From assembly GCA_016199585.1 (NCBI GenBank), contig JACQGM010000364.1, forward strand, positions 1-42,402: DNA of 42,402 nucleotides, written 5' to 3'. Source of the stretch: Armatimonadota bacterium. GTDB lineage: Bacteria; Armatimonadota; JAAZEB01. Position 1 is the stretch's first letter; every line of letters starts with the position of its first letter. A program made the position numbers and the translations under genes. Below the pieces are notes generated by a model. The model was not told where the DNA came from and ran no database searches. It saw only the letters and a program-made list of their open reading frames with translations. Of the stretch, positions 3,310-35,390 are shown in pieces.

Positions 3310-3342
3310 GGCGGCTTCCGATCCCACAGGGAGAGGCGGCCT

Positions 3343-3390
3343 GGTGCGTGACGAGTGAGGCGTGAGGCCGAGCGCCACTCGTCACGCACC
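3343..3390. terminator. 15-bp perfect inverted repeat (GGTGCGTGACGAGTG ... CACTCGTCACGCACC) with an 18-nt loop, between convergent genes
   Basis: Arms at 3343-3357 and 3376-3390 are exact reverse complements. It lies between the stop of the RND gene (3309) and the stop of the minus-strand Rpn gene (3396). There is no U-tract, so a role as an intrinsic terminator is only inferred. Confidence 0.5.
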
Positions 3391-3395
3391 ACTCA

Positions 3396-4340
3396 TCAGC
3401 CCCCGGGGGTGCCCCGCGTGCCGCTTGGCCTCTCAGCCACCACTTCCTCTGCGGAAGCGGCCACGGCCGCGCGGGCGATCCACCGGTCCAGGGCGGCCCC
3501 GTCGGTGCAGGCGAGGATGCGCGCCCGCGCCTCCCTGTCCACGGCAATCCCGCGCGCGGCGAGGACCGCCAGCACCGCCTCGGCCCTCGCCTCAGCTCTC
3601 CCCTCCGCCCTCCCTCTGGCTTCCCGGGCGGCACCGTAGTCGCGCGCCTGCTGGATCTCGTCCATCACCTTCCGGTAGGCCTCCATCTCCAACCGCGAGA
3701 ACGTGGCTTCGTTCGCCAACTGCACCGCCTCCCGGTGCGGCCCCGGGGGCAGGTCGGCCGGCATCTCGGTCAGCTCCGGCGCGTGGACGAACAGCCAGGC
3801 CCACAGGTCCGCCCCGCCGCTCGGCCGACCCTCCGGCAGCTTCGACAACTCCAGGAAGGCGTATTGCACTTGCAGGACCTCCTGGTTGCCGGAGGCCCGC
3901 TCCGTCATGTTCCAGCGGCTGAGCATCGGCACCCGCGGCAGCACGGCGGCGTCCTGTTCGGCATCCGGCCAGAGGGCGAAGTCGCAGATGGAGATGACCA
4001 CTACGTCTGCCAGCCTGGCGTACGACTCCCCTGCCTGGAGCTGGTCAACGTATGCCTTGCAGGCGTTGTAGACGACTCGGTTGACGAAGCCGGGCACGTG
4101 GAGCAGCTGCATCTCGACGACGAAGGTAGTGCCGGAGCGGTCGCGGCAGCGGACGTCGAGGATGGAGAGCTTGGCCCCGGCCACCAGGGGGAGCTGTTCG
4201 CTCGGCAGGTAATCGATGACCTCGATGGTCTGGTCGCCGCGCCGGTCCAGGAGGTTGTTGAGGAGGCCCCGGAGGATCTCCGGGTGGCCGGCGAAGATGC
4301 GGCGGAAGACGAAGTCGTTCTTCAGGTCGGCGAAAGGCAT
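3396..4340 (-). CDS. Rpn/YhgA-like PD-(D/E)XK recombination-promoting nuclease (putative transposase family) with a DUF4351-like C-terminal tail
   Basis: 314-aa ORF. The N-terminus MPFADLKNDFVFRRIFAGHPEILRGLLNNLL matches my memory of the Rpn / TIGR01784 family. The C-terminal Arg/Ala-rich helix region resembles DUF4351. An SD-like GAGGTGAG lies upstream of the ATG at 4340. Confidence 0.8.
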   Translation of the reverse strand: MPFADLKNDFVFRRIFAGHPEILRGLLNNLLDRRGDQTIEVIDYLPSEQLPLVAGAKLSILDVRCRDRSGTTFVVEMQLLHVPGFVNRVVYNACKAYVDQLQAGESYARLADVVVISICDFALWPDAEQDAAVLPRVPMLSRWNMTERASGNQEVLQVQYAFLELSKLPEGRPSGGADLWAWLFVHAPELTEMPADLPPGPHREAVQLANEATFSRLEMEAYRKVMDEIQQARDYGAAREARGRAEGRAEARAEAVLAVLAARGIAVDREARARILACTDGAALDRWIARAAVAASAEEVVAERPSGTRGTPGG

Positions 4341-4363
4341 GGCTCGCTCACCTCGCTGAGGGT

Positions 4364-4369
4364 AGTATA
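4364..4369 (-). promoter_or_regulatory. Candidate -10 hexamer TATACT (minus strand) upstream of the Rpn gene
   Basis: Plus-strand AGTATA at 4364-4369 reads TATACT on the minus strand, 23 nt upstream of the ATG at 4340. It is a local AT-rich spot in GC-rich DNA. No clear -35 element. Confidence 0.35.
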
Positions 4370-4406
4370 GCGGGAAAGGGGCTTGGGCGCAAGGGGGGCG
4401 TGTTCC

Positions 4407-4436
4407 CCACAGCCCTGGGGCGCCCCCGGGCTGTGG
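4407..4436. terminator. 30-nt GC-rich near-perfect palindrome downstream of the 4443..5090 gene
   Basis: CCACAGCCCTGGGGC|GCCCCCGGGCTGTGG. The two halves are reverse complements except for one position. It sits 7 nt after the stop of the minus-strand gene. No U-tract. Confidence 0.5.
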
Positions 4437-4442
4437 GCCGCG

Positions 4443-30851: not shown

Positions 30852-31510
30852 AAGGATTCGCGGTGCGGGGGGGAGGATCCTGTATGGGAGAGGGGCGGGG
30901 GGGCGGCGCTGGACGACCACCACACGTCCACACCTGTAGCGGAAGCCCGACGGCGATGCTTCGGCTCGGAGCCTCCCAAGAAACTTGCGGCCAACCAGCA
31001 CCGTTTCGCCCGATTCGCCGCAGCCCCGACTCTGTCATCCTGAGCCGAAGGCGAAGGATCTCCCCCGGACGACCATCACGCGTCCGCACCTGTAGCGAAA
31101 GCCCGGGGGAGATGCTTCGGCTCGGAGCCTCAGCATGACTAGTGCGCGGGCTGGGGATGGTTGTGTCCGGGCAGGGGCAAGACGCGCGAGCCCGTTTCTT
31201 CCCCTGCCACCCCGGGGCGGCCCCGGGTGAGCGGCTCCTAAGAAACTGGCGGGCGACCAGCACCGTTTCGGCTAATTCGCTGCACCCGCGACTCTGTCAC
31301 CCTGAGCCGCTGAGGCGAAGGGTCTCCGCCCCGAGAGCCACCACAGGTCTGAACCGGTAGAGGAACCCCGGCGGAGATGCTTCGGCTCGGAGCCTCAGCA
31401 TGACCGGTGCGGGGGCTTGAGATGGTTGTCCCCGGGCACCGGTACGCCGCACGCGCCTGTTTCTTCCCCTGCCACCCCGGGGCCGCCCCGGGTCACTTGC
31501 TCAGCATGAC
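30852..31510. repeat. Array of a composite ~262-bp repeat: long imperfect hairpin elements (H2 31034-31139, H3 31296-31404, degenerate H1 ~30852-30980) separated by conserved linker segments
   Basis: Read directly. Elements of the form GTCA(T/C)CCTGAGCCG..GGCGAAGG.TCTCC... / ...GGAGATGCTTCGGCTCGGAGCCTCAGCATGAC recur. The linkers CTCC(C/T)AAGAAACT.GCGG.C.ACCAGCACCGTTTCG... and ...GTTTCTTCCCCTGCCACCCCGGGGC.GCCCCGGGT.A are also duplicated. The ORFs crossing it look spurious. Confidence 0.85.
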
Positions 31511-31610: not shown

Positions 31611-33065
31611 CTACGACCGCCGCTCCCCCACCCACCGCTCCGCGAAGGCAATCGCCTCCTCGCGGCTCCTCACTTCCCCGACGGCGACGGCCTCCTCCAG
31701 GGCTTCCAGCAGTTCCCCCAGCTCCCGCCCAGGCTTCAGGCCGGTGGCGCGCATGAGCTCGCGACCGTCGGCAGGGACCACCGGCCGCGCCACGGGCGCG
31801 CCCTCGAAGTGCAGCCGCAGCATCTCCACCACGAAGCGCCGGTGCCGCTCGATCTGCTCCGGCGCTGCCCAGGGGCCGCGCGCCGCCAGGCGATCCGCCA
31901 GCGAGAGGATGAGCGTCTCGACCGCCGAGTCGCCCGCCTCGCGGAAGAACCGGTAGCGCTGTCGAGGATCCAGCGGCTCCTCCAGGGAGAGCCAGCCGGG
32001 GGAGAGGTGGCCGGCCACCATTCGCGCGACAGCCTTTGTCTCCCGGCCGCCGAGGCGCAGCCGGCGGCAGATGCCCGCGGCCACCGCGGCGCCCGCCTCG
32101 TCGTGACCCCGGAAGGTGATCACTCCGCCCGGAGTGACATCGCGTGTCTGTGGCTTGGCGACGTCGTGCAAGAGGGCGGCGAAGAGGAACAGCTCCCGCC
32201 GCGCGCGCGGTGGGGTGATCGGCTGAGAGAGCGCCCGGTGTGCCGGCTCGAACACGTCCTCCGGCAGCTCCTCACCGACGAGCAGACGCTCGGTCTGGCG
32301 CACTACCTCGAGGGTGTGCTCCCAGGCGTCCAGGTGGTGGTTGGCGTTCTGCTCCAGGCCCTTGAGCGGCATCAGCTCTGGAAGGATGACTCCGAGCATC
32401 CCCATCTCATCCAGGCGGCGCACCGACTCCGGACAGCCCGGCGCGCCCAGGAGCAGGAAGAGCTCGTCACGCACGCGCTCGGCAGCCGCGCCCGCCAGGA
32501 GGCCGGCCTGGCTGCGCGCCAGCGCCTCGGTCTCCGGCACGATGGTGAACCCCAGAACCGCCGCCATCCGCACCGCGCGCAGCAGCCGGATCGGGTCGGC
32601 GGTGAACACATCGGGCCGGACGTGCCGCACCCTGCCCGCGCTCAGGTCATCCAGCCCGCCGGCGGGGTCGATCAGGCGGCATGTTGAACACATTATTCTA
32701 TAATGTATTATAGAATAATACATTTGATCGTGCTGCAGCGGCAGCGCCATCGCGTTGATCGAGAAGTCACGCCGCAGGAGGTCCTCTTCCAGGGGCTCGG
32801 TGAGCGGGAGCACGTCCACCGGGATGCCGGGGGCACCGGAGCGAGGCACGACCCGGTAGGCGCGCATCTCGCGGTGGAGGCAGAAGGGCGCCCCGCCGGT
32901 GCGCCGGGCGATGCGCTCGGCCAGGCGCCGGGGGTTGCCATCGGTGACGAGGTCGAGGTCTTTGGTCGGACGGCCCAGGAGCAGGTCGCGCACGCACCCG
33001 CCCACGAGGTAGATGCGCTCGCCGGGGCGCGGCAGGTCGGCGAGGGATCGCAGCAGTTCTTCCAT
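31611..33065 (-). CDS. cca: CCA-adding enzyme / poly(A) polymerase-family tRNA nucleotidyltransferase with an HD domain
   Basis: GGCVRDLLLG...DLDL, RRDFSINAMA, ...DPIRLLRAVR and an HD motif (LLHDVAKP). The ATG at 33065 is 3 nt after the upstream gene stop. It contains the AT-rich palindrome listed separately. Confidence 0.88.
   Translation of the reverse strand: MEELLRSLADLPRPGERIYLVGGCVRDLLLGRPTKDLDLVTDGNPRRLAERIARRTGGAPFCLHREMRAYRVVPRSGAPGIPVDVLPLTEPLEEDLLRRDFSINAMALPLQHDQMYYSIIHYRIMCSTCRLIDPAGGLDDLSAGRVRHVRPDVFTADPIRLLRAVRMAAVLGFTIVPETEALARSQAGLLAGAAAERVRDELFLLLGAPGCPESVRRLDEMGMLGVILPELMPLKGLEQNANHHLDAWEHTLEVVRQTERLLVGEELPEDVFEPAHRALSQPITPPRARRELFLFAALLHDVAKPQTRDVTPGGVITFRGHDEAGAAVAAGICRRLRLGGRETKAVARMVAGHLSPGWLSLEEPLDPRQRYRFFREAGDSAVETLILSLADRLAARGPWAAPEQIERHRRFVVEMLRLHFEGAPVARPVVPADGRELMRATGLKPGRELGELLEALEEAVAVGEVRSREEAIAFAERWVGERRS
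32683..32728. repeat. AT-rich palindrome inside cca: perfect 13-bp arms ATTATTCTATAAT / ATTATAGAATAAT (32692-32704 / 32707-32719), 2-nt spacer, partly extendable
   Basis: Read directly. There are 9 G/C in the 47 nt of 32681-32727, within otherwise GC-rich DNA. The sequence is open in the cca frame, encoding QMYYSIIHYRIMCSTC. Confidence 0.95.
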
Positions 33066-33068
33066 CGC

Positions 33069-35390
33069 TCACCAGGGGAGGCGCGCGGGCTGGCGGAAGG
33101 AGCCGCGCGCCAGGAAGACGCCCCACCGGTGTACGAGGGGCGACGGCAGATCGAAGACGACGCCGGCGGCGTTCCCCTCCTGCGCCGCGGTGACGAGGCG
33201 CATGGCGTGCCGCGAGGTGCGCACCCGCGCCGTGCTGACCACGGGGAGCACGCGGGTGCCCGGCGCCAGGAGTTGCACCCGCTGGGAGAGCTTCCGGGCA
33301 GCGGCGGTATCCCCGGAGTCCAACTCGGGGCAGATGCCGTCCACCCAGGACTGGCGCACCCAGGAGCGCCAGTCGGCGATGGCGTAGGAGCGCGGCTCGA
33401 TGCCGACGGCGCTGATGCCCGCCAGGATCGGCACGCCGGGACGCACCGTCCGCAGGTCGCGGGTGAGGCGGCGCACCAGGGTGCTGACGCGCTCGCGCCG
33501 CCAGCGCAGCCACTCCGCCTCCCACTCGCCGCGCAGCGTCTCGGTGCGGGGGTTGCGGCCGGTGTCGGCCTGGAAGAGAGCGACGCAGGTGGGGTCGTAG
33601 CACGCCTCGGGAACACCGCCGTAGTCCAGGCAATCGAGGAGGATGCCCTGCACCGGGTAGCTCGCAAGAACGCGGCGGACCCCGGCGCACAGCGCGTCAC
33701 GCGCGCCGGCCTGCGAGGGGCAGAGCCACTGGAGGCCGCTGGAGACATAGCGCGCCCCGGCTCGCGTCTGCGCGCTCCACCCCGGGGCGAAGGGGGAGGT
33801 GGCGCCGGGGGCCCCGGTAGTGAGCAGCGGCACCCAGGCGTAGACGGACATGCCGCGCGCGGCGGCCTCGGCCAGGATCGAGGCGAGCGGGTCGTGCCCC
33901 GCGAAGCGGGGGTCCTGATTGGGTCCGGGAGCCAGGGTGAGGCCGCCGCAGTAGACCTCGGGCACGACCAGGTTGATGCCGGCTGCCTGGAGGTTGCTCA
34001 GGAGCTGGCCGATGGCGGCGCGCGAGGCGGGGAGCAGGCTGCGGGGGAGGAGCACGGCGCGCGCTTCCACCGGCCGCGAGGGGAAGGCGAGGAGGCCGAT
34101 CCGCTCGGCCGCATCCAGCGCCGCGGCAATGGCCGCCGTCGCCGTGGGCGAGAGCGCCGCGGCGGGCGTATCCGGGGGCACCGCGGGGGCGATCTCCAGT
34201 CCGGTCGCGTCGGGCGCCAACCCGGGTGCGAGCGGATCACCCCCCGGCGCGAGGGCACCCGGGTCTGTCTGCGCGCCGCCACCGGCGGAGCCGGGAGCGG
34301 GCGCCGCGGCGATCGGGGGAGCCGCCAGAGCGGCGGGGGCGGCCGCGGCGGGCACGGGAGATCCAGCCGGCGGGAGAGAGGTGCTGGCCGCCGCCGCCGA
34401 GGCCCGGGCCTCGGCGGCGGCCAGCAGCGCCGCCGCATTCGCATCTGTGGATGCCGCGGCCACGCGACGGGCTTCGCCCAGGGCCACCTCCAGCTCGGCG
34501 AGCGCCAGCCGGCGCGGATCGGGGGCTGCCACGGGCGAGAGCATCCGAATGGCGTTCTCCAGCAGGCGCAGCATGTTCCGGGTCAGCAGCGCCTCGGAGA
34601 GAATGTCCGGAGCGAAGTACGCCGTGCACGCGGTGGTGACCAGCGCCGGGGAGCGGGCCGCCGAGCGCCCGCTCGGGGTGCCATCCTCGGCCACCCAGCT
34701 TGCCTCTACCTTCCCGCCGGGCAGCGCCTCGACCAGCGGCGTGGAGCGGCTGCGCACCTCCACGTACTCCGGCAGCCCCCGGAAGGCGGCACCGCTGTTC
34801 ACGGAGCGCAGGTAGGCGTTCCCGGCGGCGCTCCAACCGTTGATGCGCACCTGCAGCGTTTCCTGCAGGCGGTAGGCGGGAAAGGCGAGCTGCCGCTTGG
34901 GCGAAACCGTCGTGCCCCACGAGCACGCGATCATGCGGCCGCCGCGCTGCACGAAGTCACGGAGGAAGGCCGCGGCTGTCAGCGTCAGCGGCCGCTCCAG
35001 GTTCACCAGCAGCGTGCCGTAGGCATCCAGCGCCCCGGCGTCCACGTCTTGATAGGACACGACCCGCGCATCGTAGCCGGCCTTGCGCAGCAGCTCGGCC
35101 AGCTCAGGGGCATCCACCACCCCGATCGCCGGCAACTGCGCGGGTGAGACCACCTGAAGCTGCAGCGCCGTTGGCCCGGGCGCCAGCGGGATCCCCGGTG
35201 CCCCGGCGGGCGGCGTCGGTGGAGGCGTGGGAGGCCCGGACTCGAGCCCCTGCGCCAACAGACAGGCGCCCCCCAACGCGATCGCCAGCACTACCCGCGC
35301 CAGTCTGGCGGCCGGTGCCGATGCCGCGCAACACGCCCCGCGCCCCCGAGAGACGGCGCGCTTCCATCGCTCTCGATCCAATCTCCCCAT
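33069..35390 (-). CDS. Secreted GHL10/DUF187-type (YngK-like) glycoside-hydrolase-like protein with an N-terminal domain and a long Ala/Pro linker
   Basis: Start at the ATG at 35390 (a TTG 9 nt downstream is also possible). Signal peptide present. The C-terminal half has ...GINLVVPEVY..., ...DPLASILAEAAARGMSVYAWV..., ...WLCPS... and ...VQGILLDCLDY, matching the GHL10 pattern as I recall it. Confidence 0.75.
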   Translation of the reverse strand: MGRLDRERWKRAVSRGRGACCAASAPAARLARVVLAIALGGACLLAQGLESGPPTPPPTPPAGAPGIPLAPGPTALQLQVVSPAQLPAIGVVDAPELAELLRKAGYDARVVSYQDVDAGALDAYGTLLVNLERPLTLTAAAFLRDFVQRGGRMIACSWGTTVSPKRQLAFPAYRLQETLQVRINGWSAAGNAYLRSVNSGAAFRGLPEYVEVRSRSTPLVEALPGGKVEASWVAEDGTPSGRSAARSPALVTTACTAYFAPDILSEALLTRNMLRLLENAIRMLSPVAAPDPRRLALAELEVALGEARRVAAASTDANAAALLAAAEARASAAAASTSLPPAGSPVPAAAAPAALAAPPIAAAPAPGSAGGGAQTDPGALAPGGDPLAPGLAPDATGLEIAPAVPPDTPAAALSPTATAAIAAALDAAERIGLLAFPSRPVEARAVLLPRSLLPASRAAIGQLLSNLQAAGINLVVPEVYCGGLTLAPGPNQDPRFAGHDPLASILAEAAARGMSVYAWVPLLTTGAPGATSPFAPGWSAQTRAGARYVSSGLQWLCPSQAGARDALCAGVRRVLASYPVQGILLDCLDYGGVPEACYDPTCVALFQADTGRNPRTETLRGEWEAEWLRWRRERVSTLVRRLTRDLRTVRPGVPILAGISAVGIEPRSYAIADWRSWVRQSWVDGICPELDSGDTAAARKLSQRVQLLAPGTRVLPVVSTARVRTSRHAMRLVTAAQEGNAAGVVFDLPSPLVHRWGVFLARGSFRQPARLPW

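Follow-up and report, generated by a model that had tools for sequence, protein, structure and literature searches.

The class-II tRNA nucleotidyltransferase gene (cca) on contig JACQGM010000364.1 of an Armatimonadota bacterium (42,402 nt, hereafter called the window) carries, within the region coding for the catalytic head, a short AT-rich tract whose core is a perfect 28-nt palindrome. At a probability of roughly 55%, this tract can be regarded as the scar of a one-off insertion that passed the filter of selection, that has no dedicated function and that is possibly the remnant of the two ends of a transposon. Judged by alignment with homologous genes, it appears as a discrete, lineage-specific and compositionally foreign insertion, because the corresponding loops of orthologues and other homologues are ordinary in guanine-plus-cytosine (GC) content and have no palindrome longer than 9 nt, those of the closest orthologues being shorter as well. 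The gene and the elements of the tract are as follows.

31611..33065, minus strand: host gene, encoding a class-II tRNA nucleotidyltransferase of 484 amino acids, with an open reading frame (ORF) intact from start to stop.
32679..32726, minus strand: the 16 AT-rich codons Q114-C129 (QMYYSIIHYRIMCSTC), compositionally foreign, where orthologues have 6 GC-rich codons.
32692..32719, no strand assigned: core 28-nt palindrome ATTATTCTATAAT-GT-ATTATAGAATAAT, perfect, with 13-nt arms (32692-32704 and 32707-32719) and a 2-nt spacer.
32687..32724, no strand assigned: chain of three overlapping palindromes with centres at about 32698, 32705/6 and 32713, recognized from inverted repeats and from reading of the sequence.
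32690..32694, no strand assigned: left copy of the direct repeat ACATT, AATGT on the coding strand, containing the ATG of M125.
32720..32724, no strand assigned: right copy of the direct repeat ACATT, AATGT on the coding strand, containing the ATG of M115.

Regarding base composition, the bacterium has a GC content of 71% and the window is uniformly GC-rich, with 0.66-0.77 per kb outside the tract. Positions 32681-32728 contain only 9 G/C in 48 nt, which is the minimum of the contig for intervals of that length (mean 33.9, standard deviation 3.3; z = -7.5), the next-lowest value being 19/48, and the binomial expectation for such a tract across the whole window is 6e-9. Third codon positions of the host gene are 87% GC, and the inverted repeat is 19% GC. 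The tract reads 5'-CATGTTGAAC AC ATTATTCTATAAT GT ATTATAGAATAAT AC ATTTGATC-3', and a stem of 13 nt was reached in none of 20,000 composition-preserving shuffles of the 48-mer, the maximum being 12, so that the palindrome is no by-product of AT bias. The window has 20 other inverted repeats, every one of them GC-rich. Two additional palindromes overlap the core, at 32687-96/32700-09 (90%) and 32702-11/32715-24 (100%), and the resulting chain can be described equivalently as two 15-nt units of the form NN-ATTAT-NNN-ATAAT. A tandem duplication of the 15-nt unit was considered and rejected, as the units differ at five positions and these are precisely the changes needed to convert a direct repeat into a reverse complement. 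The two copies of ACATT are exactly 30 nt apart, the same length as the 10-codon excess over orthologues described below, and an AC dinucleotide is found on both sides of the 28-mer. The ACATT pair may thus be a target-site duplication or a microhomology; alternatively, the flanking repeat consists of AC only. Only one of the six reading frames of the tract is open, namely that of the host gene. The initial annotation, made from the letters of the window, had described an AT-rich perfect inverted repeat inside the minus-strand gene cca, free of stop codons in the frame of the gene, with a plus strand reading MYYRIIH, and these descriptions are all accurate. It had also extended the palindrome to about 32683-32728; this extension is present in the minimum-free-energy RNA fold but absent from the centroid, pairing beyond the 13-nt arms being weak.

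The spacing between the NA(M)A and DP motifs is 25 residues in the protein of the window, compared with 15 in all five closest orthologues, i.e., the closest non-self homologues, which are 59-65% identical to it. The net excess is therefore 10 codons (30 nt) and not the 16 codons previously equated with the whole tract; that figure had been obtained with the 6-7-residue motif spacing of the E. coli and Bacillus enzymes, which belong to a different subfamily. Across 120 homologues, the length of the NA(M)A-to-DP segment varies between 9 and 30 residues and is most often 16, with 13 homologues having at least 24. The site is a natural hotspot for insertions and deletions, where length by itself is unremarkable. 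At the DNA level, the six codons of the loop tip are 61-78% GC in orthologues, where the window has its 16 AT-rich codons. Among 51 homologous genes, the GC content of the loop minus that of the gene averages -0.004 and never falls below -0.11, against -0.30 in the window, and the longest perfect inverted repeat in these other loops is 9 nt, and usually 3-5 nt, against 13 nt. In other homologues, long loops have unrelated sequences and ordinary coding DNA devoid of palindromes. The proposal that the tract is a discrete insertion rather than the outcome of drift is borne out by these comparisons. In one homologue with 54% GC (P0008, L033), the site is occupied by a 29-residue loop (codons 128-156) that, at 39% GC, is likewise richer in A and T than any other part of the gene and has no palindrome; this loop is a mild echo of the anomaly in the window, probably due to its K/N/Q/I-rich composition.

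With regard to the boundaries of the insertion, removal of one 30-nt ACATT period would yield LQHDQMCSTCR, equal in length to the loop tip of the five closest orthologues, and this outcome would fit an insert of 25-28 nt accompanied by a duplication of 2-5 nt. A patch acquired from an AT-rich orthologue was also envisaged; it is rejected because the GC-rich composition of the conserved codons on either side extends to the very edge of the tract.

The insert-bearing loop lies in the catalytic head, between two conserved motifs of the enzyme.

32751..32774, minus strand: motif B (R98 R99 D100 F S I N A105), from alignments, directly upstream of the insert-bearing loop.
32646..32669, minus strand: start of motif C (D133 P A G G L D D140), from conservation in 120 homologues, directly downstream of the loop.

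The host gene is of the CCA- or CC-adding type with a C-terminal HD domain, and its product harbors the Pfam domains PolyA_pol (head), PolyA_pol_RNAbd, HD and tRNA_NucTran2_2 (Pfam E = 2.7e-19). Its closest solved relatives are the tRNA-processing enzyme entries 3WFO-3WFS, the best being 3WFO (E = 2.5e-50), and a Foldseek comparison of the protein model with 3WFR and 3WFP gives template modelling (TM) scores of 0.77-0.80. None of the NCBIfam equivalog cut-offs is reached by the protein, the best score being 165.8 bits for a cut-off of 438.8. On these profile and structural matches, the designation class-II tRNA nucleotidyltransferase is safe, and CCA-adding and CC-adding activities are both candidates, since all equivalog scores are far below the cut-off. 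Motif definitions for tRNA nucleotidyltransferases are available (PMC2910056), and the protein conserves G22, G23, R26, D27, D36, D38, R99, D100, D133 and D140, corresponding to motifs A (GGxVRD...DxD), B (RRD) and C (Asp). In the 120 homologues, R99 and D100 are invariant or nearly so and D133 and D140 are invariant; the host protein retains all invariant motif residues. The well-studied 'flexible loop' of these enzymes is located between motifs A and B (PMC2910056) and is distinct from the site of the insert, and motif C has the role of a hinge or spring (PMC8563995).

An AlphaFold2 model of the host protein, built with 120 homologues, has a mean predicted local distance difference test score (pLDDT) of 94.7 and a predicted TM score of 0.92. 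The pLDDT is low only in the two 10-residue blocks of region 111-130 (60 and 56) and exceeds 90 elsewhere, and the model places a low-confidence helix at 115-125, between a strand at 107-109 and a single bridge residue at 132. The insert is thus predicted to be an excursion from an otherwise intact head-domain fold.

The tract also brings a cluster of rare codons, a potential hairpin and promoter-like sequences into the gene. The frequency of ATA in the contig is 1.0 per 1000 codons, and the insert alone accounts for three of the ten that were counted; AGA, TAT, TCT, TCA, ACA and TGT each occur 1.4-2.7 times per 1000 codons, and the insert has one AGA. Folded in a 71-nt context, the RNA hairpin reaches -16.5 kcal/mol (z = -2.6) with 13 bp, nearly all of them A-U, and the DNA hairpin reaches -10.6 kcal/mol (z = -2.7). 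TATAAT can be read on both strands of the tract, together with one longer match to a promoter consensus.

32684..32711, plus strand: sigma-70-like match TTGAAC-16-TATTAT, agreeing with 9 of 12 consensus positions and antisense to cca.

Two sigma-70-like sites, counted by consensus match only, are found in 4.4 kb, with 0.2 expected. The plus strand downstream of the tract has no gene, and a scan of the sequence found no terminator-like tail at the palindrome. The run of rare codons, the 13-bp A-U hairpin in the mRNA and the -10-like boxes, which would be accidental, can be viewed as side effects of the tract. An 814-amino-acid ORF on the plus strand (32703-35147) starts at an ATG within the palindrome and runs antisense to the 5' end of cca and to most of the preceding GHL10-family gene; it is one of the many spurious long ORFs typical of high-GC DNA.

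The tract could have arisen as follows. A single event would have placed short, compositionally foreign DNA, with a 28-nt perfect hairpin palindrome as its core, at the end of the surface loop that separates motif B from motif C, leaving about 48 AT-rich nt and a net gain of 30 nt. Such an insert would have been kept because its length is a multiple of three, because it is open in the frame of the gene and because the loop tolerates from 9 to 30 residues, leaving the enzyme with 10 extra, presumably poorly ordered residues. Taken jointly, insertion in frame (about 1/3), freedom from stop codons (about 1/3) and location in a tolerant loop (about 0.1) would be the mark of selection in a living lineage. 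As for the source of the DNA, the most likely candidate would be an element bounded by terminal inverted repeats that has collapsed to a remnant in which the two 13-nt ends abut and are flanked by a short direct repeat, either AC or ACATT. Replication slippage across the hairpin could leave such a remnant, as in the 'nearly precise excision' of Tn10; a small palindromic element lying in frame, such as a miniature inverted-repeat transposable element (MITE), could likewise be reduced to its bare ends when slippage deletes its interior. Alternatively, the insert could derive from filler DNA captured and inverted-duplicated in the course of break repair.

Several points weigh against this scenario. 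No donor was found for either origin, nor any parent element with these ends, the scans for a parent having covered arms with 0-30 nt between them and returned only AT-rich hairpins in unrelated genomes. A full-size transposon would inactivate a normally important enzyme, so that a tolerated intermediate is needed. Both the single-copy status of the tract and its presence in cells rest on 42 kb of one assembly, and the perfect 13/13 match of the arms could reflect selection for the hairpin and not just a recent origin. Lastly, the 30-nt core is bordered on either side by 9 nt that are AT-rich as well (3/9 and 2/9 G/C), and only 0.34% of the 18-nt intervals of the contig are as poor in G/C as these flanks. 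A simple model, with 30 nt and a duplicated target, therefore needs an unusually AT-rich target, or else a replacement has to be assumed; from the sequence, the event may be either 48 nt replacing about 18 nt or 30 nt entering an unusually AT-rich target of 18 nt.

Other copies and relatives of the tract were searched for at several levels, and all copy-number and database negatives are limited by the 42 kb sampled and by the lineage, which appears poorly sampled given that the nearest non-self homologues of the host protein are only 59-65% identical. The window has no second copy of the 13-nt arm, even at 3 mismatches (0.1 expected). Exact-pattern scans with the 28-mer, its 20-mer core, 10-nt arms around any centre and 13-nt arms spaced by 0-30 nt were run on genome, metagenome and viral contig collections, and they matched only AT-rich loci (17-49% GC in the flanks) with unrelated flanks. 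These matches correspond to promoter -10 regions, to terminator-like hairpins next to tRNA genes and to a giant-virus palindrome, and are judged to be due to chance. A blastn search with the 48-mer against plasmid, vector and phage records returned nothing below E = 0.02. An exhaustive phmmer search with the loop peptide against 1.84 billion representative proteins found only three unrelated tandem-repeat proteins; these representatives are clustered at 50% identity, and a rare insert could be hidden among them. A word-indexed peptide search was empty, but it also missed the window's own protein and is hence uninformative. No other assembly has the exact host protein on record. Rfam 15 gave no match in the whole window and only chance-level scores around the site (E >= 0.69), and a tRNA scan found nothing.

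Two groups of matches from these scans can be described individually. Two Bacillota metagenome-assembled genomes (MAGs) (L029, 4161-4187; L030, 7844-7870) carry a hairpin with identical arms ATTATTCTATAAT / ATTATAGAATAAT and a 1-nt loop. It adjoins the 3' end of an apparent tRNA gene without encoded CCA and is terminator-like, and the identity of its arms with those of the window is probably fortuitous. A palindrome of about 30 nt, (C/T)AT-ATTCTATAAT-AT-ATTATAGAAT-(A/G)T(C/G)AT, recurs in five viral contigs (L001, 5612; L006, 1780; L007, 3041; L008, 514; L009, 10047), three of which (L001, L007 and L008) are MAGs of giant viruses. This palindrome is possibly a conserved promoter or terminator motif and is unrelated to the window beyond the 10-nt arms.

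The initial annotation had envisaged a miniature palindromic mobile element of the Rickettsia type. The tract would then belong to a family of such elements able to insert into genes without disturbing the frame, and its other copies would lie beyond the 42 kb. The 13-nt terminal inverted repeats, the possible flanking duplication (AC or ACATT), the foreign composition and the in-frame, stop-free location in a surface loop, as reported for Rickettsia palindromic elements (RPEs), all accord with this idea, and a lineage-specific family could escape the databases when the best non-self homologue of the host protein is 65% identical. It is nonetheless unlikely, and no evidence for it emerged: at up to 3 mismatches in 13 there is no second copy in the window, the exact 20- to 28-mer scans matched only AT-rich, unrelated contexts, the peptide search led only to unrelated repeat proteins, and 28-48 nt is far below the approximately 150 bp of an RPE. 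Moreover, a 28-nt unit is unlikely to transpose alone, because transposase-binding ends separated by 2 nt cannot, given the stiffness of DNA, be looped together on one molecule. We know of no elements of about 30 nt living inside genes in bacteria, and there is only a slim chance that the tract is the first sighted copy of such a class of AT-rich hairpins colonising the coding loops of a GC-rich, poorly sampled lineage; such a class would be a counterpart of the GC clusters and byps of yeast mitochondria, and matched flanking codons could allow its members to be either translated through or hopped by the ribosome. An assembly or sequencing artefact, which had also been put forward, is very unlikely. 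It would account for the composition, which differs from that of the rest of the contig, and for the occurrence in a single metagenomic contig whose exact protein is found in no other assembly. Yet the gene runs on in an unchanged frame on either side of the tract. Moreover, the length is divisible by three, the sole open frame is the one used and the tract sits at the tip of the loop that varies most in length within the head, a combination that an unfiltered artefact would produce with a probability of about 1%; the plasmid, vector and phage records gave no match, and our own reading finds no likeness to common adapter sequences.

A function in cis would require the tract to act as an internal or antisense promoter, as an operator for a dimeric protein, as the core of a tyrosine-recombinase site of dif or lox type, or as an mRNA hairpin with a rare-codon pause that tunes the expression or folding of cca. 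The plus-strand match TTGAAC-16-TATTAT and the TATAAT of both strands, as consensus matches, point in this direction, as do the significance of the 13-bp hairpin against shuffles, the clustering of rare codons (three ATA and one AGA) and the fact that 28 nt can be parsed, by our own reading, as 11-6-11 like Xer sites. Such a role is quite unlikely, as no gene follows on the plus strand, cca lies only 3 nt behind the GHL10 gene and probably shares a transcript with it, and neither a terminator-like tail nor an Rfam family is present. None of the 51 homologous genes has anything comparable at the site, so the host gene does not need one. A dif/Xer site in particular is rejected: the inner ATAA and TTAT boxes are 4 nt and not 6-8 nt apart, the XerD-arm sequence TTATGTnAAnT is missing, the location is within a gene and the GC skew shows no inflection. 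Integron attC sites, protelomerase targets and terminators are likewise rejected on spacing, consensus or context, by reading of the sequence. Translational bypass, of the byp or T4 gene-60 type, would have the ribosome take off at the ATG of M115 and land at the ATG of M125, 30 nt further on, restoring the ancestral 11-residue tip. The matched codons do lie in an AATGT direct repeat with exactly this period, the hairpin begins 1 nt beyond the first ATG, take-off would be followed by very rare codons, and hopping would give LQHDQMCSTCR, which is as long as the orthologous tip. The open frame, however, contains no stop or break that would force a hop, and a target-site duplication explains the matched codons equally well; to our knowledge, programmed bypass has no precedent in bacterial chromosomal genes, and this explanation is barely credible. 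Hardly any more can be said for an ancient extension of the loop that drifted to its present sequence. Loops of 24-30 residues in 13 of the 120 homologues show that extension occurs, but these long loops have normal GC content, are unrelated in sequence and lack palindromes, and a perfect 13/13 repeat at 19% GC is beyond what selection on the protein could maintain or drift under the mutational bias of the genome could produce.

Beyond the tract, the surroundings of cca in the window are ordinary chromosomal housekeeping genes. A GHL10-family gene precedes cca with a gap of 3 nt, and the order GHL10-cca is also present in an Armatimonadetes MAG, this synteny being common to the five closest orthologues. 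The gap between a nudC-like gene and the cca stop codon is filled by a unit of about 265 nt that occurs twice in tandem (30955-31500), with 82% identity according to TRF and a mean column identity of 90% in a MAFFT alignment. The 21-nt core of this unit, GATGCTTCGGCTCGGAGCCTC, has a third copy at 30955; the repeat has no Rfam match, and a 29-nt core is absent from the genome contig collection. At the start of the contig (1-58), the octamer CCCCCATA is repeated about 7 times and may have ended the assembly. Within 3342-4442, a gene on the minus strand encodes a protein of the PD-(D/E)XK 'transposase' family (Pfam PDDEXK_2, Rpn/YhgA-like), and directly downstream of it, at 3342-3391, a perfect 16-nt inverted repeat with an 18-nt spacer is found. 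This PDDEXK_2 gene is the sole gene of the window resembling those of mobile elements or recombination nucleases, and no link between it and the palindrome is shown.

In all, nothing shows the tract to be mobile, regulatory or otherwise functional, and it is an orphan curiosity unless the genome holds further copies, which would give it far greater weight. As it stands, it offers a natural example of a catalytic domain that has absorbed foreign, palindromic, rare-codon junk DNA, it shows where class-II tRNA nucleotidyltransferases can accept an insertion, and it is a caution for annotation pipelines. It may also testify to the passage of transposons through a GC-rich lineage that is under-sampled.

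Compared with known systems, the tract resembles the 28-bp core of Xer/dif sites in the length of its palindrome and in its AT-richness. The dif consensus comprises 11-nt arms with a XerD box and a centre of 6-8 nt, and is intergenic at the replication terminus. The tract contains ATAATGTAT, as does the E. coli dif sequence (GGTGCGCATAATGTATATTATGTTAAAT). It differs from such sites in having boxes 4 nt apart instead of 6, no XerD-arm consensus, a location inside an ORF and no skew switch. Hairpin inserts in coding sequences with a composition opposite to that of the genome are known in yeast mitochondria as GC clusters (e.g., in VAR1 of S. cerevisiae) and as byps, the latter reportedly described in 2014 by Lang and colleagues from the mitochondria of Magnusiomyces capitatus. 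The tract is their mirror image: GC clusters and byps are GC-rich, multi-copy and found in AT-rich mitochondrial genomes, whereas the tract is AT-rich and present in one copy. In byps, take-off and landing codons are matched, the frame is broken and bypass is obligatory; in the tract, there are matched codons and a hairpin but the frame is open.

RPEs are about 150 bp long, multi-copy (44 insertions in R. conorii) and translated into a conserved, surface-exposed peptide compatible with the fold of the host protein. Like them, and like intragenic bacterial MITEs, the tract is palindromic, lies in frame in a housekeeping gene and is translated into what is modelled as a fold-compatible surface excursion. 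Unlike RPEs, it is only 28-48 nt long, occurs once in 42 kb, has no relatives in the searches made and is opposite in composition to the host genome. Considering the features by which RPEs and MITEs are recognized, a single copy was found in the 42 kb, at up to 3 mismatches in 13, and nothing related in the public collections, the length falls short of 50-500 bp, the terminal inverted repeats are present with arms that make up essentially the whole element, and the insertion is in frame and translated.

Remnants of Tn10 excision measure about 50 bp. Nearly precise excision of Tn10 proceeds by copy-choice slippage via the inverted repeats and leaves a palindrome of the termini flanked by the target duplication, and palindromic remnants of this kind are established (Ross et al., 1979; Foster et al., 1981). 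Although no parent with ATTATTCTATAAT ends was found for the tract, its duplication is only 2-5 nt and ambiguous, and the process was shown in E. coli, the tract is like a Tn10 remnant in being a short palindrome that resembles two abutting termini with a flanking repeat.

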